Of a stretch of DNA of 62,795 nt, positions 48,058-62,795 are shown one piece after another; the first letter of the stretch is position 1; every line of letters starts with the position of its first letter. The stretch covers positions 1 to 62,795 of the forward strand of contig CAZBFG010000002.1 of NCBI GenBank assembly GCA_964491155.1, written 5' to 3'. Origin of the DNA: an uncultured Bdellovibrionales bacterium. Lineage in GTDB: Bacteria; Patescibacteriota; Minisyncoccia; Moranbacterales; UBA1568. Made by a program: the position numbers and the translations under genes. The notes below the pieces were generated by a model that worked only from the letters and a program-made list of their open reading frames with translations, made no database searches and had not been told where the DNA came from.

Positions 48058-48073
48058 GCGGGAGCGACCGGAC
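48058..48073. repeat. left direct repeat (attL core), displaced tRNA-Asp 3' fragment
   Basis: GCGGGAGCGACCGGAC identical to 62033-62048; similarity continues (TCGAAC) after a 2-nt indel. Confidence 0.65.
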
Positions 48074-48374: not shown

Positions 48375-49193
48375 CTATAGCGAGTTGTAATCGTGACATT
48401 GAATCACACCCGGCGTATCTTTAATTTTCCCCCACTCAAAGTCATACCTTTTGTCATTAATCCAATCAGGGTACTTCACTCTAAAGTAACTTCCAACGGC
48501 TGGATCCATACCATCACCAATCCCTTCGACTATGAGGGACCCTTCTTGGTAAGAAAAATCTTCATTAAGGAATTGTGCTGACAGTAAAGCAACTAAACCA
48601 GAGGTTGCTTCAACTAAGTTTTTTAGATTTGCATGTTCAAACTTTGAGTGTATGTCATGCTTGGTTTCATTGTAATATTGGTACCAACTTTTGATTTCAC
48701 TTTTATCTTCACCTTTGTACTCACGGTAGTATTGATACCAATTAAGATCCGCTTTACCCCAGTTTTTAAATGGACAATAACGATCAAGTCCCAAGTGCTC
48801 GTTCGTATCCCATCTTGGCAATGAAACTTCATAACTAGACAACTGATGGGTTTTCTCTATAAGGCAGTAATCATGCATGTTCCAATCCTTCTCTTGTTTT
48901 TTTGAATAACCATTCTCTCGCAATATAGCCTTGCAATTAGCTTCTACTTCAATACAAACTCTAATAAATAGTTCATGAATTCTATATGAGTATGTTCTTT
49001 TATTTTTATCACTTGGTTCTACATACTCAAAGATTTTTTGTAAGTCATTTTGTATGATAAGGAAAGAGCGGATGTATTTTTCTGGTGAGTTCGCATACTC
49101 TGGGTGCTTTATGTACCTCGAGTTGCCACTGCTACTGTACGATCCATCCTTAAGTTGTCTAGCAGTTCTTCTGTACGGCTGTTCTATTGCCAT
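48375..49193 (-). CDS. hypothetical Trp/Tyr-rich protein (272 aa), last gene of the island operon
   Basis: long ORF in AT-rich DNA; internal duplicated WYQYY motif; possible HEPN-like helical core is speculation only. Confidence 0.65.
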   Translation of the reverse strand: MAIEQPYRRTARQLKDGSYSSSGNSRYIKHPEYANSPEKYIRSFLIIQNDLQKIFEYVEPSDKNKRTYSYRIHELFIRVCIEVEANCKAILRENGYSKKQEKDWNMHDYCLIEKTHQLSSYEVSLPRWDTNEHLGLDRYCPFKNWGKADLNWYQYYREYKGEDKSEIKSWYQYYNETKHDIHSKFEHANLKNLVEATSGLVALLSAQFLNEDFSYQEGSLIVEGIGDGMDPAVGSYFRVKYPDWINDKRYDFEWGKIKDTPGVIQCHDYNSL

Positions 49194-49277: not shown

Positions 49278-51731
49278 CTAATCTTCAAAACTTATTTTCC
49301 GCAACTGACTGTCTTCTGCGACTCGCTTTCGTTCTTCCATTTCACTGCTTTGGAGGTAGCCAATCATTTCTGTAACAAATTTCTTTACGCGTCTATTCTT
49401 TGATTCCTTGTATTTCTGAAGAATTTCTACCTTCCCCTTGTAGGCATCCGCAATCCCATATTCTCCAGATACCACGCCAGTAGCATACATAGTTGCACCA
49501 ATCTTTTTGTGAATCTTATCATTGTCTGTCCGCGCAATAATCTGCATACCGAGTTCAAAGTCTGCTTCGCCTATGCCCTCAATCACATACGCTACTCGAA
49601 GCAAGTCCTTATCATCACCTCTTGCTACGATGTCGGATAAAACTTGCCGCCTATCTACATTGATACTCTCCAAGAATCGACTAACTTCCCAGTTGTAAAG
49701 AGACCAGCCTAGAGTCATTTTTAGCACCCAACTTTTTACAGTAGCTGCAAGTCTTTTTTGATCCTCAGTCAACAATTTCTGAAGGTCCGGATTAAGATGA
49801 TAGGGTATTGCCTCAAACTCTTTCCGCTTCATTAATCGCTTTATGCCATGCGACTTGTCTTTTTTCTGGAGAAAAATAGTCCGTGAAATTCTTTTTTTAA
49901 AAAGATTCATTATGCAATCAAAGTCTTTCTCACAAAGCTCAATCAAAAATTCCTGTAGATGCCAATCTAAGTTAGGGGCCTCCACAACTTTGTTCAAAAG
50001 GTATTTCTTAAACGCCTTGCTCGCTAAAGAAAGATCAATCCACTTCCAGACTGTCGCAATGAACTGTAACGCTTGATAATGAATAGCGGCGTATTCTGCA
50101 TTATTTTGTATTTCTTCTCTTATAAGCCACTCTATCTTTCGTTTTTGTGGCTTAAAGTTAAAAGCAAGGGCGTGAAAAAGACGGTCATGCAAGTACCATA
50201 GTGAAGCATCTTTTCTCTTTGACTTCAGGAAACTAAATCTCTTTTTTTTGAAAACAATCTCCTCAAGAATATTCAACTCATTAAAGCGGAGCTTTCTTGG
50301 AACCTGTTCCTGTGCATGAGCAACAAGAGAATTACATATCCCACCCATAAGATAGATGGCTTGCTTCCTAATAATCAACTCAGAATATTTGTCCCACAGG
50401 TCCGATTTCTGCGTAACTTGAAAACCAATCAAAAAACTCTCAGCAAAGTTAATCAGGGGCTTATCTCGTTTAAATGCGTCACCTAACAACCCGTCGGCAA
50501 CTTCTGACGTTTCGGATGACAACATCTCAAGAAATCTCTTGAAATCACCCAATTTCCATTCCTCAATAACATCTTTCTGTTTTGCAAGAATATTTAATAC
50601 TTCTGTCCACTCTAATAGACCCTCATCTGATATTTTCGCAATAAGATCTCGCTGATCTTTTTCTCTTCGCTGTTTTGATTCTTCATATCCCTCTTCGCCT
50701 CGATATGCAGCACGACCGCCAATCATAGGTCGAACTTTTTCATAAAAAGAATCTTTCAGTATGTCTTCTCGTAGTTCTACTAGGTCAGATGGACGCCCTC
50801 TATCTGGCTTAGCAAGGTAATAAAACCTTTCTTCAATTTCTTCTACAACAGCAATATTTTCTCTAATGATATTTCCTGATTTATCAAAAATCATTTTCCG
50901 ATATATATTTGATAAATACTTTGCATCATCATCTAACATTCCTCTCAAACTGTCGGAATATTTAACATTACCTGGGCTACGAAACGCCTCTTCTAAAGCA
51001 GAAGAGAGTCGAAGCCTGACTTTTAAATCTGATGTTCTAGTGTATAGATCGTAGACAAAGTCTATAGTCTCCCTTCGTATTTTTTTAAGAAAATTAGTCG
51101 GATCAACTTGTGCAAAGTTCATTGTTAATGTCTTTTCATCCGACCAAGAAGAGCCCTCGACGGAAGAGTTCAGAAGCTCTTTTACAACTGCAAAAATAAA
51201 ATCAAGATTGGTTAAGCGTTTCTTCATGGGCCACTTCAAGATATAATCCAAAACTATTCTTTGGACACTATACCCAATCTTTGAATTAAACAAAACTGCA
51301 TAATCATACTTTGTAAGTTTTTTAAGTACCTCTAAAGCTTTTTCCTTAATCAACTCCTCCTCATTTGTGATAACCACCTCAAGTAGAGGTAAGACTTTCT
51401 TTGGAAGAATATACCGAATCTTAGATAGCAAACTAAGACCCTTAAGAACTATATCTGTTCTTGACTTACCTTCAAGCACTCCAAACTTTGATCTTGATTT
51501 TAGAACGGGAAAGGACGTCTGTAGAATATACTTAAAAATTTCAATAGTCTGTTCAGAGCCTTTATAGACAAATTCCTCTAATAGATCGAGTTTTTCATAA
51601 ATAACATCATTATTCTTTGGAGATTTGAGAATTTCATCCCTAAGTTCATCGGCAAACACAGACAGTTGTTTATCTGCCTTTTCATTTCCAAGAGCCATCA
51701 GTTGACACAATATTTGCTTTTGTATGCTCAT
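49278..51731 (-). CDS. large all-helical protein of unknown function (817 aa)
   Basis: 2.4-kb ORF in roughly 36% GC DNA; Leu/Lys/Glu-rich, repeat-like helices; no catalytic motif seen; ATGA overlap with the HNH gene. Confidence 0.8.
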   Translation of the reverse strand: MSIQKQILCQLMALGNEKADKQLSVFADELRDEILKSPKNNDVIYEKLDLLEEFVYKGSEQTIEIFKYILQTSFPVLKSRSKFGVLEGKSRTDIVLKGLSLLSKIRYILPKKVLPLLEVVITNEEELIKEKALEVLKKLTKYDYAVLFNSKIGYSVQRIVLDYILKWPMKKRLTNLDFIFAVVKELLNSSVEGSSWSDEKTLTMNFAQVDPTNFLKKIRRETIDFVYDLYTRTSDLKVRLRLSSALEEAFRSPGNVKYSDSLRGMLDDDAKYLSNIYRKMIFDKSGNIIRENIAVVEEIEERFYYLAKPDRGRPSDLVELREDILKDSFYEKVRPMIGGRAAYRGEEGYEESKQRREKDQRDLIAKISDEGLLEWTEVLNILAKQKDVIEEWKLGDFKRFLEMLSSETSEVADGLLGDAFKRDKPLINFAESFLIGFQVTQKSDLWDKYSELIIRKQAIYLMGGICNSLVAHAQEQVPRKLRFNELNILEEIVFKKKRFSFLKSKRKDASLWYLHDRLFHALAFNFKPQKRKIEWLIREEIQNNAEYAAIHYQALQFIATVWKWIDLSLASKAFKKYLLNKVVEAPNLDWHLQEFLIELCEKDFDCIMNLFKKRISRTIFLQKKDKSHGIKRLMKRKEFEAIPYHLNPDLQKLLTEDQKRLAATVKSWVLKMTLGWSLYNWEVSRFLESINVDRRQVLSDIVARGDDKDLLRVAYVIEGIGEADFELGMQIIARTDNDKIHKKIGATMYATGVVSGEYGIADAYKGKVEILQKYKESKNRRVKKFVTEMIGYLQSSEMEERKRVAEDSQLRKISFED

Positions 51732-52390
51732 ATCCGAGTAAACTTTTCGATTATTTCTTTGATATCCAACTTTCCAGATGTAATGAGTTCACTTAAGGCA
51801 ACTTTCGCATCAGACTTATCCTTAAGAGAAACCAGCCCTCCCGTAACGTCTACTAGTCCTAGTTGAATAAGTTGATTTAGTATTGCTTCCTCTTCTTCAG
51901 AGGTAGCGTCTAACAATATACGCACCGTTTGTCTGACGGATTCACCGCGCTGGTCTATATAAAACTCCGGAATTAAGTAAATAAAACATTGATAAAAAAT
52001 AATCTTGTCTGAGTTTCTAGTAAGCATCTCATGATACTTTAACTGCAATGTTGCAAAGTCACTCGACACAGTAATTTTTTCTGAATTCGTTAAATAAAAA
52101 ACGACTTTTTGCAATTTTAGCAGCTCTTCACTTGCTTGCTTAGCACGATTTTTATACTCACGAAAATCATTGGGGGATATCTTGCCATCATGAGCCATTC
52201 CATGACAGTTACTACAAATACACACAATATTGTCGGAGACATTATTCTCCCTATTACCATCAATATGGTGCAACGTTAGAGAGATCCTTTCTTTGCAAAC
52301 TAGACAAGAGTGGTTCGCCTCAACCTTAATTTCCCTTTGTAAAGTTGATGGGATTTTCTTCCTTGGTTTCGTGTATTTCTTTGGTGACAT
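51728..52390 (-). CDS. HNH endonuclease with C-terminal helical (wHTH-like) extension
   Basis: CLVC..HHIDGNRENN..N..CSNCHGMAH (aa 29-67). Confidence 0.8.
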   Translation of the reverse strand: MSPKKYTKPRKKIPSTLQREIKVEANHSCLVCKERISLTLHHIDGNRENNVSDNIVCICSNCHGMAHDGKISPNDFREYKNRAKQASEELLKLQKVVFYLTNSEKITVSSDFATLQLKYHEMLTRNSDKIIFYQCFIYLIPEFYIDQRGESVRQTVRILLDATSEEEEAILNQLIQLGLVDVTGGLVSLKDKSDAKVALSELITSGKLDIKEIIEKFTRI

Positions 52391-52415: not shown

Positions 52416-55400
52416 CTAACGTGTACTTTCCGAGACATGTTTCTTTATTATGAAAAAAATCTCCATCAAAATATTCTGCTTTCGGTGCCTTAAGTCCTCC
52501 CGGTTAGTTGCTAAATCCAAATCTGTACTCGCATCGGTGTCAGTAGATTTCTTTAAGTAATCCGAGGAGAAATGTATCGCCCCAAACTTTACCGTGGCTT
52601 GATTGGCTAAATTATATAGTGCAACAGCACGGGCAATCTTGGAGGATTCAATATCTATAGTATCGATTTTTTTCTTGGAAAAGCTTTCGCGTTGAGCAAA
52701 AGTTTCTTCCATTGTTGTAGATACAGAAACATGAGCTAAAGAAGAGTATTCCTTAATATATTCCATGGAGTTACTTATTTTGGAACCTATACTCATAATT
52801 TCGTTCCTTCTTCCTACGACAAATGATTTTGGTATGTATATTCTTTTATATACCTCGCGAGGAGATTTTAAAGTGCCAACCTTGCCTATGTGTAAAACTT
52901 CAGATGCATTTAGCTGGCATATTTTCTGCGCTAAAAAATCACTTATATCACCCCAGTGGCCGTAGTTTGCCTCAAGACAGTTTATTACCTTGCCATTTTT
53001 AGAAATAAATCTCGTAGCCGAGTAATACTTATTTTGGTGAGTACTCAGCACGGAAAAATCAGGATCTTTCTCAAGCTGGTTTTTAAAGAAGGTGCTATAA
53101 CCAAGAATCACTACGTCATTCTTGATAATCATTCTATCATCCAAGCCTGTCCATTTATCTATCTTTTTTTCAGCTAATGGATAAGCGTAGGCGCTCACTG
53201 AGACTGATAGATTTCTTAAATAATACTTCAGCATGGAAGCGTAGTGGATCAGCAGATCCCGACCCGGAGTAACACAACAAACAAGAAGCTTTTTCGAACC
53301 TCTCTCTGCTACCAAGAACATCGGCCTCAAACTGTTGCTATTATCGGTTTTCCCCTTACTAAAGTGAATTACTTCCACTATATTGAATCCTAGACTCAAC
53401 TCGTTTAGAACTTTAAGATCTGGATATATGCCATGAACCTCAACACTATCTATCTCCTTAACCCTGCTCTCTATTAGTTCTATCGGCAGTTTAGACTGTA
53501 TGTATTTTTCCAGTGAAATGGTCATCGTATGATCGCTCACGTAGGGCGTATCGAAATTCTTATCTGGAACTCTGATTACCTTGCTGTATATATCCAGACG
53601 TTCTAGTGAAAAGTACTTATTAATAAAGTTAGTTATCGAATCCGTAAATTCAAAATTTGGTATCTGATCTTTTGTGATCCACTTAAAAGAGAGCGATTCT
53701 TCATTGATTCTTATTTTCTTGTCTTCTACAACAGTCGAGGTATAGTCATAAAAATGATAGTGGTTACCGCTCTTCGCAGTATAGTCACGCACTCCCAAAA
53801 GATTGATATGCTCAACCATTAGCCCGGTTTCCTCAAAAACCTCACGTACAAATGCTTCAATAGGAGCTTCATTCATACCGAGCTTGCCGCCAGGTACGAC
53901 CCATTTCCCATGGTCTTTGCCCTTGCTTGTCTGGAGTATTAAAAATTGTCCCGTTGAGTTGTAGATGAGCCCTCCTGAGGCAAGAATTTTATAGGTCTCC
54001 TTAGGATTGAAAAGTCTTCTGTAATATGACAAAAAAGCACGGAAGTTTTTTGTATCGGTCGGGATTTGAAAACTTATTTTTGACTTAATGGCAAATCTTT
54101 TTCGATAAGATTCTCGAACCGTTTCGAAACCATCCTGACCGTTGCAGTAGTCTGGCAAATCACTATTGCTTCTCATTAGTAACCAGGCACTTATAACTTT
54201 TGCGATTCTACCACAACCATCAACAAAAACATGTCCACAAAAATCAATATTCCATTCAATCCAGGCGGCCAAATCCGTTGGTGCAGTTTCGGGATTTTTA
54301 ATCTTCTTATGGAACTGATTAATAAATGATTTGTAGAATTTTTTTACGTACTGAGTATCGACATAGAAATATTTATGCGAGTTGCTCCCACTCCTTATCA
54401 TCAACTTTTCGTTAGTCACAATCCCCCGATTGACCATCTTTGCTATCTGATCGATGAAATCTTGAAGCACCTGGGGTGATAGCAAGTGCAGGCTCTTATT
54501 ATCGTATGCAAAGTCAAAAGCCTGGATTACATTACTTCTCGTAATATCGGCGAGGTCCTTCTTTGGCACGAGCAAATTAACAAGCATCGGCTTGTCCTTC
54601 GAGGCAGAAACGTTCAGTTCTCCTCCAAATGTTCTGCTTGTATTTTCAATATTACGCAAGAGCCTGTTTAGGTATTCCTCCTTAGAAAAGCGTGGTGTGT
54701 AACTTCTGCGCGAATGCTTATCAAGAGCAGACTGAAGCGTCTCTTTATTAGAGAGTACGGTATCCTTTAGACTTTCAGCGTTTGCTATATATCGAACCTC
54801 AGATTCCTGCGCTATATTTTTCTTATTACTTTTGTAATCCCTTTTAAGACTGACAACAACTGGGTGCCCATTGCTATTGATAAGTACGGTAGAGTAATCT
54901 TTCACCCATCTTGAGTCGATTGATTTTTCCAAAAAAGACAGTCGCCCCTCTTCAATCGCCCTATAACTTTTATAGAGGGCCGAGAAGTCTGGGGTGGGAT
55001 CACTCGGGTATACTCCAGTTCTCTCAAGGACTCGTAGTGCCGATGTTATGAAATCAACTTTCAAGTCAAAGATAGTAACGGGCAGCTTTCTCTGAGCAGC
55101 ATCAACTAATAGATCATCAAGATCAGAAGGATCTTGCATTCTCTTATCAATGACGTATCCCAAGTTAGATTCCCTGACAAGCTTAAGAATTTTCTCGCCA
55201 ATAACAGACGCCTCCTCATGAAAGAGGTATCCGGAAAATGCGTGTCCCGTTACATTGTGGGTATTTAAAAGCAGTTGTCTTTTTACAGCATCGGTATTTA
55301 ACACGCCATCAAAAGCCTCCAACGTCTTTATATTTTGACGGAGAAGACTTTGGATAAAAGAGGATTTCCCAGACGCCACAGATCCTCTCACACAGTAGAT

Positions 55401-55961
55401 TCCTCTTCCTAGTTTTTTTGATCGCACTACTTTCTGTGACAGAATCTCGGCACTTTTATAACAATGGCGTATCAGTTCGTCGTGAACCCGAACTCTCTCA
55501 CTGATCCAATTTTTCTCATCATTGAGGCATCTTCGTAGGGTGACCTTGTCTATGTTATGAGTATCAAAGTTTGTAAAAACATCATAGGACTTTAACTCTG
55601 ATTTTGCTACCGAAAGCAGTAAGCACCTTAAGGAAACACTGTGGGTCTTACCCTGATGGCTCTCATTATCGTGTAGCTTGATCTGATTCAGGACTCTTTT
55701 TAGACTGACAATATCCATGCCTGTCACCTCAACCTCGAGAGAGGAGTTAATGAACACCAGATACTTTTCACTCACTTTCAGCGCCTGCAATACAAGTGGC
55801 TTCAAAAACTTTCTATCAGCATGCGCGTTTATAGAACGCACGGCACTTTCTATATCAAGACTGTCAGTGCTCAACAAACTTACCAGTATACTGGCAGCGC
55901 CTTCCTGATTGAATTGCGAGAGCTTCTCTTTTACGATATTCGCGTTCATAAAAAACATCAA
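52416..55961 (-). CDS. 1181-aa multidomain protein: unknown N-domain + zeta-toxin-like P-loop kinase + Fic + Nudix + PNP/MTAN-like nucleosidase fold
   Basis: Walker A GSVASGKS (aa 193-200) with LNTD (221-224); Fic motif HVFVDGCGRIAK (577-588); exact Nudix box G692-x5-E-x7-REVFEETGL (to 714); HIGKVGT (1024-1030), DIESSKIA (1103-1110), HFSSD (1130-1134) as in PNP_UDP enzymes; track start is TTG 55961, ATG at 55958. Confidence 0.85.
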   Translation of the reverse strand: MMFFMNANIVKEKLSQFNQEGAASILVSLLSTDSLDIESAVRSINAHADRKFLKPLVLQALKVSEKYLVFINSSLEVEVTGMDIVSLKRVLNQIKLHDNESHQGKTHSVSLRCLLLSVAKSELKSYDVFTNFDTHNIDKVTLRRCLNDEKNWISERVRVHDELIRHCYKSAEILSQKVVRSKKLGRGIYCVRGSVASGKSSFIQSLLRQNIKTLEAFDGVLNTDAVKRQLLLNTHNVTGHAFSGYLFHEEASVIGEKILKLVRESNLGYVIDKRMQDPSDLDDLLVDAAQRKLPVTIFDLKVDFITSALRVLERTGVYPSDPTPDFSALYKSYRAIEEGRLSFLEKSIDSRWVKDYSTVLINSNGHPVVVSLKRDYKSNKKNIAQESEVRYIANAESLKDTVLSNKETLQSALDKHSRRSYTPRFSKEEYLNRLLRNIENTSRTFGGELNVSASKDKPMLVNLLVPKKDLADITRSNVIQAFDFAYDNKSLHLLSPQVLQDFIDQIAKMVNRGIVTNEKLMIRSGSNSHKYFYVDTQYVKKFYKSFINQFHKKIKNPETAPTDLAAWIEWNIDFCGHVFVDGCGRIAKVISAWLLMRSNSDLPDYCNGQDGFETVRESYRKRFAIKSKISFQIPTDTKNFRAFLSYYRRLFNPKETYKILASGGLIYNSTGQFLILQTSKGKDHGKWVVPGGKLGMNEAPIEAFVREVFEETGLMVEHINLLGVRDYTAKSGNHYHFYDYTSTVVEDKKIRINEESLSFKWITKDQIPNFEFTDSITNFINKYFSLERLDIYSKVIRVPDKNFDTPYVSDHTMTISLEKYIQSKLPIELIESRVKEIDSVEVHGIYPDLKVLNELSLGFNIVEVIHFSKGKTDNSNSLRPMFLVAERGSKKLLVCCVTPGRDLLIHYASMLKYYLRNLSVSVSAYAYPLAEKKIDKWTGLDDRMIIKNDVVILGYSTFFKNQLEKDPDFSVLSTHQNKYYSATRFISKNGKVINCLEANYGHWGDISDFLAQKICQLNASEVLHIGKVGTLKSPREVYKRIYIPKSFVVGRRNEIMSIGSKISNSMEYIKEYSSLAHVSVSTTMEETFAQRESFSKKKIDTIDIESSKIARAVALYNLANQATVKFGAIHFSSDYLKKSTDTDASTDLDLATNREDLRHRKQNILMEIFFIIKKHVSESTR

Positions 55962-56500
55962 GCCAGTATATCAAGCAGCTCATGAATTTCTTTGATCGAC
56001 TTTAGGTCTTGAGGAATCTCATCTGGCATTTTTGAAACGCTATTTTCTATGAAAAAAGCATCTATACCGATATTTTTTGCCGCGAGGTAGTCATAGAAGT
56101 AACTGTCCCCGACCATAAGAGCATCATTCTTACTGAGACCTAAAGAAGCCAGGATTTCTAGCATAATCGCGGCTTTCCCATTCGGATCGTCTCCACTAGA
56201 AGATCTGTGCGCGTAGAACAGACTGCTCAGCCCGAAGTACTCGAGCCTTTCTTTAATCTCTTTGATGGCAATTTCCTCAGCGTAGGGGTTGGCCGAAAGC
56301 ACTACAAGGTATATTCCCCTTTCCCTCAGAGCCTCCAGGGTTTCTTTGGTCCGCGGCGTCAACTCCAAATGCTCCAAATAATTATCTTTCGTTTCTGGAT
56401 CATGGTAAATCCAGTGGGGTTTTTGCGTGCGCTTTGTCGCCTTGGGATACCAAAGTGTTCCGTCACCATCGAGAAACACTATTTTCTTCTTCGTTTTCAT
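55958..56500 (-). CDS. HAD-superfamily phosphatase (IIIA-like)
   Basis: motif I FLDGDGT (D11, D13), motif II LSAN, Lys109, motif IV GDSYFYD. Confidence 0.8.
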   Translation of the reverse strand: MKTKKKIVFLDGDGTLWYPKATKRTQKPHWIYHDPETKDNYLEHLELTPRTKETLEALRERGIYLVVLSANPYAEEIAIKEIKERLEYFGLSSLFYAHRSSSGDDPNGKAAIMLEILASLGLSKNDALMVGDSYFYDYLAAKNIGIDAFFIENSVSKMPDEIPQDLKSIKEIHELLDILA

Positions 56501-56523: not shown

Positions 56524-57129
56524 TTAAAAAATCTCCAACTCCTCAACTATTTTTCCTTCCGATTTCAATCTTTCCAAATCAGCTTCAAGATTATTCTTTA
56601 TTGCCCTCACTCTTTCGAGTTGAGTAAGTCGGTAAGTATTCGTATTGCGAGACTCGATTCTTTTCTTGAGTTCTTCCTCAGAAATCTTTAGATAAATAAC
56701 GACATCAGAGTCTACGAGTGTACTTCCAAAAGCAGGGCGTCCAGCTTCGATACTTATTTGGCTCTGAGTATACCCCGTTAACAGTTCGGTCGTTTCTCTC
56801 AGGTAAGCTTGGTGTTCATCGCTGGCTGGATCGAACTCTTTTTCAGAATATTTCACAGTCTTTCTATCGCCATCAATGAACATGAACGGGTGCTCATGGT
56901 GCAGTACATGTCTTTTAAAATCCTCTGGCATACCATCAAACACCGCGTCTAAATCGACGCCTGCCTTGATGTGTTGGAGGATAGTACTCTTTCCGACGCT
57001 TGGTGGCGCAAGCACCAACACCCTCTTATCTTTATATTTTTCTAGTAGTGATTCAAGAGTCTCTGCGTGTCCTTTTCCCTCCTTTGGGTTTAGGTGCATG
57101 TCTCTAAAATCTTTTTTCTCAAACGACAT
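56524..57129 (-). CDS. P-loop nucleotide/nucleoside kinase-like protein
   Basis: Walker A APPSVGKST (aa 41-49); VVIYLKISEEELKKRIESR lid-like segment typical of NMP kinases. Confidence 0.7.
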   Translation of the reverse strand: MSFEKKDFRDMHLNPKEGKGHAETLESLLEKYKDKRVLVLAPPSVGKSTILQHIKAGVDLDAVFDGMPEDFKRHVLHHEHPFMFIDGDRKTVKYSEKEFDPASDEHQAYLRETTELLTGYTQSQISIEAGRPAFGSTLVDSDVVIYLKISEEELKKRIESRNTNTYRLTQLERVRAIKNNLEADLERLKSEGKIVEELEIF

Positions 57130-57132
57130 ATA

Positions 57133-57333
57133 TCATTTCTCATTGTTAAGAATTTTCTCGAGATCTTCTTTTCGATACCGTCGATCCTTTCTCGTTCCAA
57201 AACGAATGGCCTTTAGAATTCCCTTATTGTCCCAATTCCTTAAAGTGTTGGGATGGCAATGTAAAAGCGTACAGGCCTCAGCAAGAGTGAGAATATCGGG
57301 TATTTCCTTTGTTTTCACGGATTGTTTTTTCAT
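57133..57333 (-). CDS. MerR/excisionase-family helix-turn-helix protein
   Basis: LTLAEACTLLHCHPNTLRNWDNKGILKAIRFG..RRYRKEDLEKIL. Confidence 0.75.
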   Translation of the reverse strand: MKKQSVKTKEIPDILTLAEACTLLHCHPNTLRNWDNKGILKAIRFGTRKDRRYRKEDLEKILNNEK

Positions 57334-58392: not shown

Positions 58393-58424
58393 ACACTCTG
58401 ACCCGAGACCGTCACGAGAAAAAT

Positions 58425-58444
58425 CACGCGAAAGCGTGTTTTTT
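58425..58444 (+). terminator. intrinsic terminator
   Basis: CACGC GAAA GCGTG followed by T6. Confidence 0.7.
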
Positions 58445-58481
58445 AATTTTGCCTCAGTATCTATGTATACGATTTACTGTC

Positions 58482-58673
58482 ATGCAAAATTCTTTCTCTC
58501 CAAGTCTGGTAGCGCGAGCACAACGGATTTTTGAAAAAAGGTCTGGGCGTGTTGTGAGTGAGGAAGAGACAGAAATATATCTAGCCACCCTAGCCAAGCT
58601 CGGGCTCCTCGCCCTGCGGGTTATAGAAACAGCTCAGTCCAAAAAAAATGCCAAGAATAGTACCCATCGATAA
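58482..58673 (+). CDS. hypothetical small protein
   Basis: ORF only; start at MQNSF. Confidence 0.4.
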   Translation: MQNSFSPSLVARAQRIFEKRSGRVVSEEETEIYLATLAKLGLLALRVIETAQSKKNAKNSTHR

Positions 58674-58911
58674 AAATGCGCGGATAGTGGTCGAGCCGCT
58701 CAATTTCACCCTGCAATTTCGCAGAAAATCTAAAACGCGAAATTCGTGGCGTACGGATGGATATTTCCCAGATCTGATATCTCTCATCGCTTATTACATA
58801 AACATGTCCCCACAACGCGCTGACAACGCAATGAAAAGCATTGATGGTCTCGTTCAGACCATCAAAAACGCTGAAGAAAATATAATACGCATGATTAATT
58901 CTCAAAAATAA
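58648..58911 (+). CDS. hypothetical small protein
   Basis: ORF only. Confidence 0.45.
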   Translation: MPRIVPIDKNARIVVEPLNFTLQFRRKSKTRNSWRTDGYFPDLISLIAYYINMSPQRADNAMKSIDGLVQTIKNAEENIIRMINSQK

Positions 58912-58913
58912 CT

Positions 58914-59246
58914 ATGGAACCACTAACAGGAATGCTCTCAAAAAGAGTCCAACAAATAAGCGAACGAGACGAAGCGGTACGGAAAATCCTAGAACAGTAC
59001 CCGAAAGAATTAGTCGATGAAGCCCTAAGGCGGATAGACAAAACACTAGCACAAGAAATTCTCGGGATGAAGAAGTGTCCGCTCATCAAAAATGCTAGCT
59101 GGGATTGCGGATCTGGCCTACGAAAAGGTGAAGAGACCTGGTGTACCAATATCCAATACATCAATTGCGGTGCCTTTGATAAATATCTCATCTGGTATAT
59201 GACCAAAAAAACAAAAGAAAAAAGAACCAAAAAAGAAAAGATATAG
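58914..59246 (+). CDS. hypothetical small protein with Lys-rich tail
   Basis: ORF only; starts 2 nt after the previous stop. Confidence 0.5.
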   Translation: MEPLTGMLSKRVQQISERDEAVRKILEQYPKELVDEALRRIDKTLAQEILGMKKCPLIKNASWDCGSGLRKGEETWCTNIQYINCGAFDKYLIWYMTKKTKEKRTKKEKI

Positions 59247-59359
59247 TACCTATACCTATCTACCTTCTCTCTTCTCTTTTCTTCAGAGTACTTATATATA
59301 TGTATATACCTGAAAATGAAAATCATTGAAAAAATTGGAAAATACGGAACCAAAGAAAG

Positions 59360-59389
59360 TTGTCGCACGACAGGCACGACCAATAAAAT
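59360..59389 (+). promoter_or_regulatory. sigma70-like promoter in front of the GC-rich non-coding segment
   Basis: TTGTCG (59360-59365), 18-nt spacer, TAAAAT (59384-59389). Confidence 0.3.
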
Positions 59390-59394
59390 GAGAA

Positions 59395-60377
59395 CTTGAA
59401 AAATCGTGAAAGGGAAAATCGCAGAGAATCGCCCTATCAGTCCTTTAGAGAGAGTGTTCGAGCGGCGCCCGCAAGGAGCCACCCTACCAACAGTCGAGGC
59501 AGGGGCCGGCCCGACGCGCAGAGGAAGCGGCTCCGGCATGGGGCGCGGAAAGAAATCCAAAGAGCATGACACTCCCCCGACCCGCCACCGCCTCTCCACC
59601 ACGCGTCTGCATAATCTGTTATTAGGCGATGTCTCGCCTCGAGAAGGTCGCCTAATAATGGTCCTGATTATGCGATGCTTGGTGAGAGTGCGGCTTTGCC
59701 CTCGTTTATCAGGGAAGGGTGGCCGGGGGGTATCCACCCTGATATCTACGAGGGCACGGGTCGGAACAGAAAGAGTGTCATTCCCTTTTCCGCGCAATGA
59801 GAAAGAGTGACTTCGTCACACGATATGAAAAGCGTGCCGTGATGCAGGTGGGCCCGACGGTCTGTAATCGGATCCGGCGGGTCGCCCTGCAAGGCCACGG
59901 CACACCGTATTGGCTGCTCTACCGTTTGATAGCAGGAGTCGGCTGGTGGCCGGGTGGGTTTCGGTACCGGACGTGCCCACCGCTACGAGCCAGACAGTCC
60001 CGATTGCGGGTCTGTCTGGTGAGAGGGGCACGAGGTACAGAGATTCCGCACGGTGACCGGCTGTTCTTTGGGCAAAGCGTCGGGTGGCACTACGTTTGAG
60101 GAGGATGGAGCGTTTGTTTGGTAGGAGCCAAGCCCACACCGACCGAAGGGAGGCGAGCATAGCGAGAGAGGAGCGGAAGCGACGTGGGCGGTGAAGTTGC
60201 AGGAACGTTTGTTAGGAGCTATTTGGAAGAACCAAGAAATATGCAGTATACTGACTTTGGACACAATTTCAATGTTTCGGAAGAGGAGCAACTTTTATTA
60301 GTTGTTCCGGTGAAAGGACGACTTTCGCCACAGCTTCCGAAAGGGAATTGTGTCCAGGCGAGGTCGTCCTTTTATTT
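59395..60377 (+). ncRNA. candidate large structured RNA (family unknown)
   Basis: GC-rich segment (42 of 60 on line 59941) in AT-rich island; only Arg/Pro/Gly-rich junk ORFs on both strands; nested perfect hairpins at 59619-59658, 59699-59754 and 59990-60019; long-range pair 59834-59841/59895-59902; terminator-like two-tier stem plus T-tract at 60313-60377. Confidence 0.45.
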
Positions 60378-60384
60378 GGGCATT

Positions 60385-60516
60385 ATGAATCTTTCCAATC
60401 CAAAATTTCGATACAAGGGATCCAAGCCGTTCTGGTTGTGGACCACTGGTGAATGGTTTTTTTATACCACTATCTTTCTTATCGGCTGGATCATTATCAT
60501 TTTGAATGATCTATGA
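60385..60516 (+). CDS. small hydrophobic peptide overlapping the recombinase start
   Basis: MNLSNPKFRYKGSKPFWLWTTGEWFFYTTIFLIGWIIIILNDL; stop overlaps the recombinase ATG (ATGA); an upstream ATG at 60241 would cross the terminator-like hairpin. Confidence 0.35.
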   Translation: MNLSNPKFRYKGSKPFWLWTTGEWFFYTTIFLIGWIIIILNDL

Positions 60517-62072
60517 ACTACATCATTTACGCGAGAAAATCGACCGAGAGTGAAGACAGGCAATCTTTGTCTATCCAATCGCAGATTATTGAAATGCAAG
60601 AAATTGCTCAGCGCGAAGGCGTGCGTGTGGTGAAGATTTTTCAAGAATCAAAATCCGCCAAAGAACCAGGACGACCGGTCTTTGCGGAGATGATCAAATA
60701 TATTCAATCGGGAAAAGCACAGGGAGTACTGTGCTGGAAGATTGATCGACTGGCACGCAACCCTGTCGATGAAGGATTGGTGAAATGGCTCTTGCAAAAA
60801 GAGGTTATCAAACAAATCCGCACATCTGACCGGGAATATAATCCCGACGACAATGTGGTGATTGCGAGTATTGAGTTTAGCATGGCCAATCAGTACATCC
60901 GCGACTTGAGCAAAAACGTGAAGCGAGGATTAGCGGAAAAAGTTCGTCGTGGTGAATACCCGGGGTGCCAGTCACTCGGATATACTCGTGATCCAAAAAC
61001 AAAGATCCTTCAGATTGATCCGGCTACCGCTCCCTACGTCCGCACTGCCTTTGAACTCTACGCCACGCACCACTGGTCTATCCTCAGGCTTGCTGACAAA
61101 CTCTACGAGGATGGCTTACGTTCTCGAAGTGGCAGGAAACTGGGGAAATCACGCCTGCACCGCATTCTTTCCAATCCCCTCTACTGCGGACTCTTTGAAT
61201 GGAACGGACAAACACACAAAGGCGTCCACCCTCCTCTCGTTTCCAAAAGACTCTTCGACGAAGCCCAGCAGAAACTCTTTCCCGAACGCTACCTCACCCG
61301 CAAAACAAAGCGTTCATTTCTCTTCCGCGGATTAGCGATATGTGGCGAGTGTGGGTTGAAAATAACAGCGGAAATAAAAAAGGGACATACGTATTACCGC
61401 TGTACCAAATCCCATGGGACACAACACTGCTCACAGAAATACCTGCGAGAAGAAGAACTGATCAAGGCCATCGAGAAAGAATCCAAAAAAGTCCACTTTG
61501 ACGATGAGATACTCGACCTCATTTTCGAAGCATCCAAAGAACAGCTCGCCCAAATATCAGGCGAGACCACTGAACGCAAAGACGAGCTAGCCGCTTTGCT
61601 CATCACAGTACAAAAGCGAAGGGAATCGCTTATCGAGAAGTTTATCGATAACGCTATCCCAAAAGAAATTTACGATCGGAAGTACTCGGAATCTATCGAA
61701 GAAGAAGCAAGTATAGAAGAGAGGCTCCAACAATTCGACCACGACAACGGAGATCCTCTCACAGACTTGAAGACTATCATCGGCTTTGTCAGAACAGCGC
61801 ACGATATCTTCAATAAAGGCGACGATTCTATCAAAAAAGAAATAGCCTCTCTTTTATCTTCGAACTTCGCTCTCAAGGACCAAGAAATCGCTTATTTCAA
61901 CCTCAATGAGCCTTTCTCTTGGTTGGCAGAAGATGCCAGCGTCCTGTTGTCCCAAAAAACCACCTTCGAACCACTACTAACCCGCATGGATAAAAGAAAA
62001 ACAGCCTCCCATGAGACTGTATTTTCCAATTGGCGGGAGCGACCGGACTCGAACCGGCGACCTACTGCGTGA
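60513..62072 (+). CDS. large serine recombinase / integrase
   Basis: resolvase catalytic domain (IIYARKSTESEDRQSLSIQSQ, DRLARN), recombinase domain, zinc ribbon CGECG..YYRC, coiled-coil; last 14 codons read into the tRNA-Asp gene. Confidence 0.9.
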   Translation: MNYIIYARKSTESEDRQSLSIQSQIIEMQEIAQREGVRVVKIFQESKSAKEPGRPVFAEMIKYIQSGKAQGVLCWKIDRLARNPVDEGLVKWLLQKEVIKQIRTSDREYNPDDNVVIASIEFSMANQYIRDLSKNVKRGLAEKVRRGEYPGCQSLGYTRDPKTKILQIDPATAPYVRTAFELYATHHWSILRLADKLYEDGLRSRSGRKLGKSRLHRILSNPLYCGLFEWNGQTHKGVHPPLVSKRLFDEAQQKLFPERYLTRKTKRSFLFRGLAICGECGLKITAEIKKGHTYYRCTKSHGTQHCSQKYLREEELIKAIEKESKKVHFDDEILDLIFEASKEQLAQISGETTERKDELAALLITVQKRRESLIEKFIDNAIPKEIYDRKYSESIEEEASIEERLQQFDHDNGDPLTDLKTIIGFVRTAHDIFNKGDDSIKKEIASLLSSNFALKDQEIAYFNLNEPFSWLAEDASVLLSQKTTFEPLLTRMDKRKTASHETVFSNWRERPDSNRRPTA

Positions 62073-62107
62073 CAGGCAGTCGCTCTAACCAGCTGAGCTA
62101 CGCCCCC
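62031..62107 (-). tRNA. tRNA-Asp (anticodon GTC), CCA encoded
   Basis: hand-folded cloverleaf: acceptor GGGGGCG/CGCTCCC, D stem GCTC/GAGC, anticodon stem ACTGC/GCAGT with loop CTGTCAC, T arm GCCGG TTCGAGT CCGGT. Confidence 0.9.
62033..62048. repeat. right direct repeat (attR core) inside tRNA-Asp
   Basis: GCGGGAGCGACCGGAC identical to 48058-48073. Confidence 0.65.
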
Positions 62108-62579: not shown

Positions 62580-62653
62580 TAGCAGGGGCGAGACTCGAAC
62601 TCGCGACCTCAGCGTTATGAGTGCTGCGTTCTAGCCAGCTGAACTACCCTGCC
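62580..62653 (-). tRNA. tRNA with CAT anticodon (Met, or Ile2 if lysidinylated)
   Basis: cloverleaf: D stem GTTC/GAAC, loop CTCATAA, T arm GCGAG TTCGAGT CTCGC; no encoded CCA; no GGG/CCC initiator signature. Confidence 0.8.
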
Positions 62654-62741: not shown

Positions 62742-62795
62742 TTGCGGGGGGTGGATTCGAACCACCGACCTCTTGGTTATGAGCCAAGCGAGCTG
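62742..62795 (-). tRNA. partial tRNA with CAT anticodon, cut by the window end
   Basis: anticodon stem CTTGG/CCAAG, loop CTCATAA, T arm GGTGG TTCGAAT CCACC, acceptor 3' strand CCCCGCA. Confidence 0.7.

Follow-up and report, generated by a model that had tools for sequence, protein, structure and literature searches.

A kinase, Fic, Nudix and nucleoside phosphorylase-fold protein in a mobile low-GC cassette of uncultured bacteria, a possible toxin with an enzymatic antidote

The window described here is a 62,795-nucleotide (nt) stretch of contig CAZBFG010000002.1 (assembly GCA_964491155.1) from an uncultured bacterium, analysed over its full length. An open reading frame (ORF) scan of the window gives an uninterrupted frame of 1181 codons at 52416..55961 on the minus strand, called the giant below. 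It encodes, after an N-terminal domain, an AvrRxo1-type kinase, a Fic-fold domain, a Nudix hydrolase domain and a C-terminal module (C-module) with a predicted fold of purine nucleoside phosphorylase (PNP) and uridine phosphorylase (UP, UDP in the family name PNP/UDP). Two genes directly upstream, for a HAD-type phosphatase and a small P-loop protein, form a cassette with it. The TTG at 55961 is directly followed by an ATG at 55958, and gene callers choose the ATG, which yields a protein of 1180 amino acids (aa). One base is common to this ATG and to the stop codon, TGA, of the HAD gene upstream (TGATG). The plus-strand reading of 52416..55961 was rejected, as its translation contains many stops. 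The single ORF of the original prediction (52416-55961) was recovered together with all the strings quoted from it, and its strand is minus; residue numbers given here are lower by one because ATG 55958 is taken as the start. The cassette and the parts of the giant are as follows.

52416..55958, minus: giant ORF, 1180 aa from ATG 55958, alternative start TTG 55961, stop codon 52416-52418
55539..55958, minus: N-terminal domain, aa 1-140, no known family in Pfam or NCBIfam, least conserved part (identity 0.39)
54753..55538, minus: AvrRxo1/XopAJ-type zeta-like P-loop kinase, aa 141-402 (NCBIfam NF041405, PDB 4z8q, weak Pfam Zeta_toxin)
55362-55385, minus: Walker A motif GSVASGKS, aa 192-199
55281-55304, minus: catalytic-Asp segment VLNTDAVK, aa 219-226
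53994..54746, minus: Fic-fold domain, aa 405-655 (structure model, Foldseek, PDB profile search)
54198-54233, minus: variant Fic motif HVFVDGCGRIAK, aa 576-587, with Asn changed to Cys and the last Arg to Lys
53604..53990, minus: Nudix hydrolase domain, aa 657-785 (Pfam PF00293), a separate 136-aa gene at locus L009
53820-53888, minus: Nudix box GKLGMNEAPIEAFVREVFEETGL, aa 691-713, exact fit to Gx5Ex7REUxEExGU
52419..53603, minus: C-module, aa 786-1180, a ~100-aa N-terminal subdomain and a putative PNP/UDP fold, a stand-alone gene in L009 and P0034
52872-52892, minus: HIGKVGT, aa 1023-1029
52632-52655, minus: DIESSKIA, aa 1102-1109
52557-52574, minus: HFSSDY, aa 1129-1134
55958..56500, minus: HAD-type (IIIA-like, capless) phosphatase, 180 aa, whose stop overlaps the ATG of the giant
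56524..57129, minus: small P-loop protein, NMP-kinase/AAA_18-like, 201 aa, the first gene of the cassette

The giant is a genuine multi-enzyme protein of the cytoplasm, from uncultured bacteria that most likely belong to Patescibacteria (CPR, for Candidate Phyla Radiation). The identical protein is present on two independent assemblies, and the full-length architecture was found in 30 further clusters of homologues at 45-84% identity and ~1175 aa. The family is rare, with 31 clusters among 5.8 billion proteins and six loci among 185,579 species representatives; the latter are labelled Candidatus (Ca.) Moraniibacteriota, Patescibacteria group and others, and the taxonomic labels of the metagenome-assembled genomes carrying the giant disagree. 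In an alignment of 26 homologues the motif residues pointed out in the original prediction are invariant or near-invariant. Mean pairwise identity is 0.39 for the N-terminal domain, 0.55 for the kinase, 0.59 for Fic, 0.68 for Nudix and 0.71 for the PNP core, and every enzyme domain is under constraint. At the split locus L009 the parts are encoded by adjacent genes, namely the HAD, a 670-aa protein with the N-terminal, kinase and Fic domains (41% identical to aa 6-650 of the giant), a 136-aa Nudix protein (49% to aa 657-785) and a 399-aa C-module; the gene breaks coincide exactly with the predicted domain borders. A second natural fission, into proteins of 790 aa and 406 aa, has both halves on one 947-kb contig. 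These fissions speak for a functional coupling of the parts. An assembly chimera, a danger which the original prediction had itself raised, was checked for and is excluded by the presence of the same protein on both assemblies; the 30 full-length clusters and the finding of fissions at domain borders only lead to the same rejection. No relative of the giant was found in viral contigs (IMG/VR), and phage records were matched via the Nudix domain alone (query aa 648-798), so that a phage origin was rejected. The giant showed neither a signal peptide nor a transmembrane segment, nor any delivery domain that could be recognised.

The kinase matches the NCBIfam model of XopAJ/AvrRxo1 (NF041405) with E 4.8e-29 and 101.6 bits over model positions 19-283 of 324, which is below the curated cut-off of 300 bits. 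The family profile matches the structure of AvrRxo1-ORF1 (PDB 4z8q) at E 2.7e-16, and in this alignment GSVASGKS lies on GNTATGKT of AvrRxo1 and VLNTD on VNPD. The match to Pfam is a weak one to Zeta_toxin only. G192, G197, K198 and D223 are invariant among the 26 sequences, and D223 is the equivalent of D193 of AvrRxo1, a residue essential in that enzyme (PMC5087710). AvrRxo1 adds a phosphate to the adenosine 3'-OH of NAD and of nicotinic acid adenine dinucleotide (NAAD) and is slow on ATP and ADP (PMC5087710; PMC5491322). The zeta-like kinase first proposed for this region is thereby upheld and narrowed to the AvrRxo1/XopAJ type. The N-terminal domain in front of it, from profile position ~27 onward, aligns in distant kinase–Fic relatives too.

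The Fic region was modelled by AlphaFold with a predicted local distance difference test score (pLDDT) of 89, and the top 45 Foldseek hits of the model in the PDB are all Fic proteins (best hit 3cuc, E 8.4e-4; probability ~1, template modelling (TM) score 0.4-0.57). In a PDB profile search with this region 12/12 matches were Fic/Fido proteins, at E 0.26-1.8 and with alignments centred on the helix and the motif. Pfam Fic (PF02661) gave no match to the giant at E<=1. The motif departs from the canonical HxFx(D/E)GNGRxxR by the exchange of Asn for Cys and of the last Arg for Lys; it retains H, F, D, G, G as well as the first R. Across 33 diverse relatives H, D, G, C and G of H-x-F-x-D-G-C-G-K/R are invariant (33/33), and both Arg positions are Lys in most of them. 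The Fic call of the original prediction, supported at fold level only, and the two substitutions noted there stand, the changes being invariant across the family. That the phosphate-binding loop has an invariant Cys points to an altered Fic chemistry. No conserved (S/T)xxxE(G/N) inhibitory motif was recognised by eye in the domain. The Fic-fold domain is always joined to the AvrRxo1-type kinase lineage.

The Nudix domain is matched by Pfam NUDIX (PF00293) with E 5.8e-17 and 62.4 bits, the gathering cut-off being 21.1. E697, R705, E706, E709 and E710 are invariant (26 sequences), and the PDB matches of the region are MutT-like enzymes, in full agreement with the canonical Nudix domain that had been proposed.

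The C-module is placed at fold level. Its AlphaFold model is moderately confident (pLDDT 72), and at E<=1e-3 Foldseek returned 185 PDB hits, headed by nucleoside phosphorylases for uridine and purines; the first 50 are all UP or PNP, with TM to target of 0.40-0.51. The top two hits in the viral structure library BFVD are likewise nucleoside phosphorylases. Pfam, PDB profile and broader family profile searches gave no phosphorylase match to the C-module of the giant, which does not reach the gathering score of PNP_UDP_1 (PF01048, 25.1) and has no hit to it. With these three profile searches failing, membership in the PNP family at sequence level was rejected. Among 52 members of the C-module family, three graze PNP_UDP_1 (best E 0.017), which is the sole recurring Pfam family; the relative P0118 matches it at E 0.0027 and 17.6 bits over the half bearing the E-x-E and S-D motifs. 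K1026, D1102 and E1104 are invariant and D1133 is near-invariant across the 52 members, in the same order as in the PNP motifs. The model thus suggests, and supports at fold level only, that the C-module has the PNP/uridine-phosphorylase fold within a large family without a name. The PNP/MTAN-like nucleosidase fold of the original prediction therefore holds for the fold as found by Foldseek and fails for sequence-profile membership. A similarity of VTPGRDLLIHYASM to L-asparaginase (E 0.17-0.5) was dismissed as chance; it disappears with a broader profile and contradicts the fold search. In terms of class, then, the giant combines an AvrRxo1-type kinase under the family cut-off, a Fic fold with a non-canonical motif, a bona fide Nudix domain and a PNP/UDP fold. 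All four domain calls of the original prediction, which was to fall if two or more of them failed, have found support.

The cassette order, small AAA_18 kinase, HAD, giant, is kept in 7/7 independent full-length loci, and the flanking genes are entirely different among them. The HAD protein matches Pfam Hydrolase/HAD_2 (E 1e-12 to 1e-14) and TIGR01662 HAD-IIIA (E 2e-9). It is the most conserved member of the cassette, with 67-91% identity against 41-84% for the giant, or 43-84% over the seven full-length loci, and is the higher of the two at every locus. The small P-loop protein, at 50-84% identity in all seven full-length loci, matches Pfam AAA_18 (E 2.6e-6) and dNK (E 3.6e-4) and has weak adenylate-kinase matches; a PDB search with it was uninformative. 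The GC (guanine plus cytosine) content of the cassette is 0.33-0.43 against 0.45-0.51 for the flanks, and the cassette is always GC-poorer than its flanks. The cassette is a horizontally mobile, low-GC unit. One of the seven full-length loci (L004) lies beside genes of a type IV secretion system (T4SS), and one neighbourhood is housekeeping-like, with pyruvate kinase and DXP synthase. In a Ca. Moraniibacteriota genome (L006, 15994-17402) a diversity-generating retroelement (bAvd and RVT_1) lies downstream of the cassette at a distance of ~4.5 kb.

In the window the cassette lies inside a ~14-kb low-GC stretch (~48.06-62.05 kb, GC 0.36-0.47 against 0.50). The stretch is bracketed by a 16-nt exact direct repeat, GCGGGAGCGACCGGAC, at 48058-48073 and 62033-62048 (~22 nt are similar), one copy of which is the 3' end of a tRNA-Asp gene (62031-62107, minus). 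This arrangement resembles that of an integrative element which has entered the tRNA-Asp gene. A large serine recombinase is encoded at one end, and the end of its ORF was formed across the attachment site, since its last ~14 codons run antisense into tRNA-Asp. Besides the cassette, the following genes were found in the island.

60513-62072, plus: large serine recombinase (Resolvase, Recombinase and Zn_ribbon_recom), 519 aa
57382-58392, plus: divergent 336-aa ORF, weak zinc-ribbon matches, island-specific
57133-57333, minus: HTH_17/MerR-like (excisionase-type) ORF, 66 aa, ending 3 nt before the small kinase gene, island-specific
51728-52390, minus: HNH-like protein, 220 aa, weak ZorE/IscB-type HNH matches
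49278-51731, minus: 817-aa protein, no family match
48375-49193, minus: 272-aa protein, no family match

The last three genes are tightly packed directly downstream of the giant. They are absent at every other cassette locus and may for this reason be separate cargo of the island, possibly a defence system. The first of them, the island-specific HNH-like gene, begins 25 nt past the stop of the giant. None of the six reading frames of the window contains the Arc1-type partner motif KExFD…(Y/L)ExxYY, and an Arc1-like antitoxin at the locus was rejected. The region ~58400-60500 is gene-poor, with one 110-aa ORF called; its AT skew is unusual, at +0.13 to +0.20, and its GC skew is close to zero. 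Scans of the island against Rfam and for tandem repeats gave nothing besides tRNAs. A tRNA-Met (62580-62653, minus) and a further tRNA cut by the window end (62742-62795, minus) form a tRNA cluster with tRNA-Asp beside the island.

At E<=1e-3 an exhaustive profile search returned 18,171 proteins, of which 230 reached E<=1e-30, and in these the giant resolves into two older blocks, the N-terminal, kinase and Fic domains (block A) and the C-module (block B). Block A is found as proteins of 600-900 aa and at the extreme C-terminus of proteins of 1.1-2.6 thousand aa. All its relatives bear H-x-F-x-D-G-C-G-K/R, their kinases are strongly AvrRxo1-like, and one of them (P0054, 802 aa) reaches 284.7 bits on the AvrRxo1 model NF041405. 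In two independent relatives a SpoT/RelA-type HD_4 gene, for a 3'-pyrophosphohydrolase, lies directly downstream of the kinase–Fic gene (L020, 3732-4730; L022, 3282-4112), adjacent to it in one and overlapping in the other. These HD_4 hydrolases are candidates for enzymatic antidotes against a 3'-kinase toxin. A small ORF upstream at L021 (212 aa) was rejected as a homologue of the AAA_18 protein, since it has no similarity, and for a third kinase–Fic relative, P0124, the contig ends at the gene.

The C-module family occurs alone (~400 aa) or fused to other domains, commonly alpha/alpha-toroids, and also a GFO_IDH_MocA oxidoreductase, PAS with a LuxR-type helix-turn-helix (HTH; P0131) and DUF4062/NIR NADase. 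An operon at L007 contains the C-module, GFO_IDH_MocA, Nudix, AAA_28 and Inositol_P, with T4SS genes beside it, and C-module relatives at L008, L012 and L013 occur with GFO_IDH_MocA and HD. Two Klebsiella IncFIB plasmids, NZ_CP103421.1 (L026, 5995-9505) and NZ_CP055107.1 (L028, 6019-9505), carry a mobile four-gene operon of C-module, DMT transporter, NUDIX and DegT aminotransferase; the operon is flanked by insertion sequence (IS) elements, plus toxin–antitoxin genes in L028, and its C-module is annotated as a hypothetical protein. An "RHS" label on a Klebsiella oxytoca plasmid hit belongs to a 296-aa coding-sequence fragment by IS elements, "hypothetical" in RefSeq, and was not used as evidence for a polymorphic toxin. 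The 982-aa relative P0078 (L012, 8001-10949) joins DUF4062/NIR NADase, an alpha/alpha-toroid and the C-module and is followed by a GFO_IDH_MocA gene; a 1166-aa TIR_2 protein and an adenosine-deaminase-family gene are encoded within ~4 kb upstream, and this setting looks like a defence island.

Tentatively, and with somewhat less than an even chance of being right, we read the cassette as a conflict-type module, a toxin with an enzymatic antidote, acting along the bonds of an adenine (di)nucleotide. The common thread would be the ribose 3' position of purine nucleotides. Starting from the established architecture, domain identities, conservation, cassette linkage, mobility and gene fissions, we infer the substrates, the order of the steps and the target cell, which may be the producer or a host bacterium. 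In a first step the AvrRxo1-type kinase would phosphorylate the adenosine 3'-OH of NAD+ or of an adenine nucleotide, as its homology and its intact catalytic residues suggest. The Nudix domain may then cleave the diphosphate, for example of 3'-NADP to nicotinamide mononucleotide (NMN) and 3',5'-ADP. The C-module, to judge by its fold and the acidic residues invariant throughout its family, could cut the glycosidic bond in the mononucleotide or nucleoside so produced; the loss of the nucleotide would be irreversible because the base is removed. Finally the HAD phosphatase, perhaps with the small kinase, would remove or drain the phosphorylated product and so shield the producer. It would fill the role that Arc1 has for AvrRxo1, or that the SpoT-like HD hydrolase may have beside the kinase–Fic relatives; with no Arc1-like partner present, the HAD is left as the candidate antidote. 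The Fic domain would either alter a second (protein) target by its changed chemistry or regulate the kinase. The conflict reading appears to find support in the toxin lineage from which the kinase–Fic block comes: AvrRxo1 is a bacteriostatic toxin producing 3'-NADP (PMC5087710, PMC5491322, PMC4938570), related blocks form the tips of giant proteins, and others have HD_4 partners. Precedents also speak for it: in Metis a HAD_2 phosphatase guards an effector that destroys NAD (bioRxiv 10.1101/2025.11.05.686725), and the C-module relative P0078 carries a DUF4062/NIR NADase and neighbours TIR and deaminase genes (bioRxiv 10.64898/2026.09.04.749371). The idea put forward in the original prediction, that one nucleotide is processed through sequential steps or that nucleotides are depleted by several routes, would fit all of these findings.

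Several points weigh against this reading. HAD and the small kinase change as slowly as the giant or slower, which is atypical for antitoxins and fits co-enzymes of a pathway. The substrate of the kinase may differ from NAD, because 101.6 bits is far under the cut-off of 300, and no NADH- or ADP-ribose-specific signature was seen in the sequence of the Nudix domain. The C-module may be a hydrolase, a phosphorylase or a mere binding domain. The cassette neighbourhoods are mostly not defence islands. PADLOC-DB v2 matched the giant with a generic Nudix model only (PDC-S07, 135 positions, E 1.3e-12), gave generic matches only for the cassette neighbours and no match for the C-module relatives and P0056; a known defence system was accordingly rejected. 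Absence from the viral contigs also counts on this side. The distant C-module operons (Nudix, GFO/IDH/MocA, DegT, monophosphatase, exporter) resemble aminonucleoside biosynthesis and not toxins. Lastly, the conflict reading is a prediction from sequence and modelled folds.

The operons just named lead to the strongest alternative, in which the cassette makes a purine nucleoside or nucleotide modified at the 3' position of the sugar, either an antimetabolite or chain terminator or a signal. Here the kinase would set the 3' modification, Nudix would trim the 5' polyphosphate as Pur7 does, and HAD would be a monophosphatase comparable to Pur3 and RifM, while the PNP-fold module would swap or remove the base and the small kinase would serve in self-resistance or activation. 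The pairing of Nudix and C-module recurs in unrelated operons with sugar-modifying enzymes (L007 and the two Klebsiella plasmids, besides GFO_IDH_MocA and HD at L008, L012 and L013). Such operons mirror the 3'-aminonucleoside core of Pur10, Pur4, Pur7 and Pur3 with an exporter, and the adg cluster of Photorhabdus is likewise a small low-GC island (PMC11641026; PMC9239236). The strong conservation of HAD and the small kinase also suits pathway enzymes. However, the cassette in the window has no exporter, oxidoreductase or aminotransferase, the likeness to the Pur enzymes goes no further than the family level, and all the kinase–Fic relatives that are characterised or have a context are toxin-like (AvrRxo1, the tips of giant proteins, HD_4 or Arc1 partners; PMC4938570). 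This alternative is regarded as somewhat doubtful. We know of no precedent for a Fic domain in small-molecule biosynthesis.

It is rather improbable that the giant is an immune effector under the control of a sensor, in which the C-module, with or without Nudix, would sense a ligand and switch on an NAD-directed kinase–Fic unit, and HAD with the small kinase would hold the ligand low, as MisB does in Metis. As a promiscuous C-terminal partner of the NIR NADase with a toroid (P0078, near TIR_2 and adenosine deaminase genes), of PAS with a LuxR-type HTH (P0131) and of alpha/alpha-toroids, the C-module would suit a sensor. Both the HAD guard (bioRxiv 10.1101/2025.11.05.686725) and nucleotide-sensing NAD-depleting effectors (bioRxiv 10.64898/2026.09.04.749371) have precedent. 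Against a sensor, the invariant Lys, Asp and Glu and the late Asp at the positions of the PNP motifs suit an active enzyme better than a degenerate sensor, PADLOC finds nothing, most cassette loci lie outside defence islands, and a single NIR fusion was seen.

A role in housekeeping salvage is quite unlikely. CPR bacteria depend on salvage, and a metabolon of six activities could degrade NAD and adenine nucleotides obtained by scavenging to bases and ribose phosphates, which a nucleotide-auxotrophic host would use again or draw energy from; all six predicted activities are ordinary chemistries of nucleotide metabolism, the host is probably a member of the CPR, and the housekeeping-like neighbourhood would fit. 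But the cassette is very rare, has foreign GC and varying insertion sites and rides an integrative island in the window, its kinase is of a toxin lineage, and the Fic domain would be superfluous for salvage. Equally little probability is given to a secreted effector, delivered by an epibiont into its host bacterium, for example via a CPR type IV system, where it would deplete or harvest nucleotides while HAD and the small kinase shield the producing cell: secretion is known for the effector AvrRxo1 (PMC5491322), giant proteins are capped by the kinase–Fic block, L004 and the C-module relative L007 lie beside T4SS genes, and the T4SS of CPR bacteria appear to be non-conjugative (bioRxiv 10.1101/2025.01.22.634366), a point in its favour, but the giant has none of the delivery features looked for, and T4SS adjacency is found in 1/7 full-length cassette loci and may reflect an integrative element.

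To return to the toxin with its enzymatic antidote, its most specific form is unlikely as a whole. It would comprise a dismantling of NAD+ or adenine nucleotides in three reactions, checked by HAD as a 3'-phosphatase, a Fic clade with a catalytic Cys and a chemistry other than AMPylation, and a C-module family that with Nudix processes 3'-modified purine nucleotides from the CPR to Klebsiella plasmids. If the toxin–antidote reading is right, the giant would be the first AvrRxo1-type NAD kinase in one chain with enzymes that finish off its product, and the first such toxin to be neutralised by a small-molecule phosphatase instead of a binding protein. Whatever the role, two testable families have been isolated, the Cys-Fic clade and the unnamed PNP-fold family, and the occurrence on Klebsiella plasmids makes the C-module family experimentally tractable. 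The cassette also enlarges the very short list of effector or toxin functions proposed for ultra-small CPR bacteria. The literature searched contained no description of the fusion of four enzymes, of HAD and the small kinase as its obligate partners, of the Cys-Fic signature as a clade or of the C-module family. The original prediction had known of no characterised protein with all four domains; this is right for the fusion of four enzymes, and for that only, because the pair of kinase and Fic was already noted in 2016 (PMC4938570).

Among known systems, Metis consists of the NAD+ diphosphatase MisA and the HAD_2 phosphatase MisB and sets a precedent for a toxic output by cleavage of the NAD diphosphate (bioRxiv 10.1101/2025.11.05.686725). 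It joins an enzyme cleaving a nucleotide diphosphate to a co-encoded HAD_2 phosphatase that works on a mononucleotide, a pairing which the cassette would share; this is an analogy, and homology is not claimed. MisA, unlike the Nudix domain of the giant, belongs to the calcineurin-like phosphoesterases and has a PUA-like sensor. With Pur10, Pur4, Pur7 and Pur3 and with AdgB-E the cassette would share a Nudix step from nucleoside triphosphate to monophosphate and a monophosphatase step on 3'-modified purine nucleotides, and it is similarly small, low in GC and mobile, whereas neither the Pur nor the Adg clusters include a PNP-fold module, an AvrRxo1-type kinase or a Fic domain. The C-module resembles the nucleoside phosphorylase-I enzymes (uridine phosphorylase, PNP, MTA/SAH nucleosidase and AMP nucleosidase) in its predicted fold, and its G-K-x-G loop, D/E-x-E and late S/T-D follow the order of their ribose- and base-binding motifs; the extra N-terminal subdomain is also present in AMP nucleosidase. 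The anti-phage ATP nucleosidases Cap17 and DtcC belong to this superfamily (bioRxiv 10.1101/2023.01.24.525353); in contrast to the superfamily, Cap17 and DtcC included, the C-module is without sequence-level membership and matches no PADLOC model. The Fic-fold domain is like FICD/HYPE, IbpA Fic2, BT_2513 (PDB 3cuc) and Doc in its fold, its catalytic His, its Phe and Asp and the G-x-G-R anion-binding loop, and differs from the Fic/Fido AMP-transferases by an invariant Cys in place of the motif Asn and a Lys in place of the last Arg. The kinase shares its fold, the Walker A motif GxxxxGK[ST] and the catalytic Asp with AvrRxo1/XopAJ, a type III effector of Xanthomonas and part of the AvrRxo1–Arc1 pair, and like AvrRxo1 (PMC4938570) it is encoded on low-GC mobile DNA. 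Unlike AvrRxo1, it sits in a chain of 1180 aa with three further enzyme domains, and its activity on NAD is a predicted one. The nearest described proteins are the long AvrRxo1-like proteins with a predicted C-terminal Fic/Doc domain (742-893 aa) from Ca. Saccharimonas and Parcubacteria, which adjoin Arc1-like ORFs (Triplett et al. 2016, PMC4938570). They have the same order of kinase and then Fic and come from the same broad bacterial group. Those proteins end after Fic, while the giant adds the N-terminal domain, Nudix and the C-module; the kinase–Fic proteins have an Arc1-like ORF or a SpoT-like HD_4 protein as their partner, and the giant has the HAD phosphatase and the small kinase.

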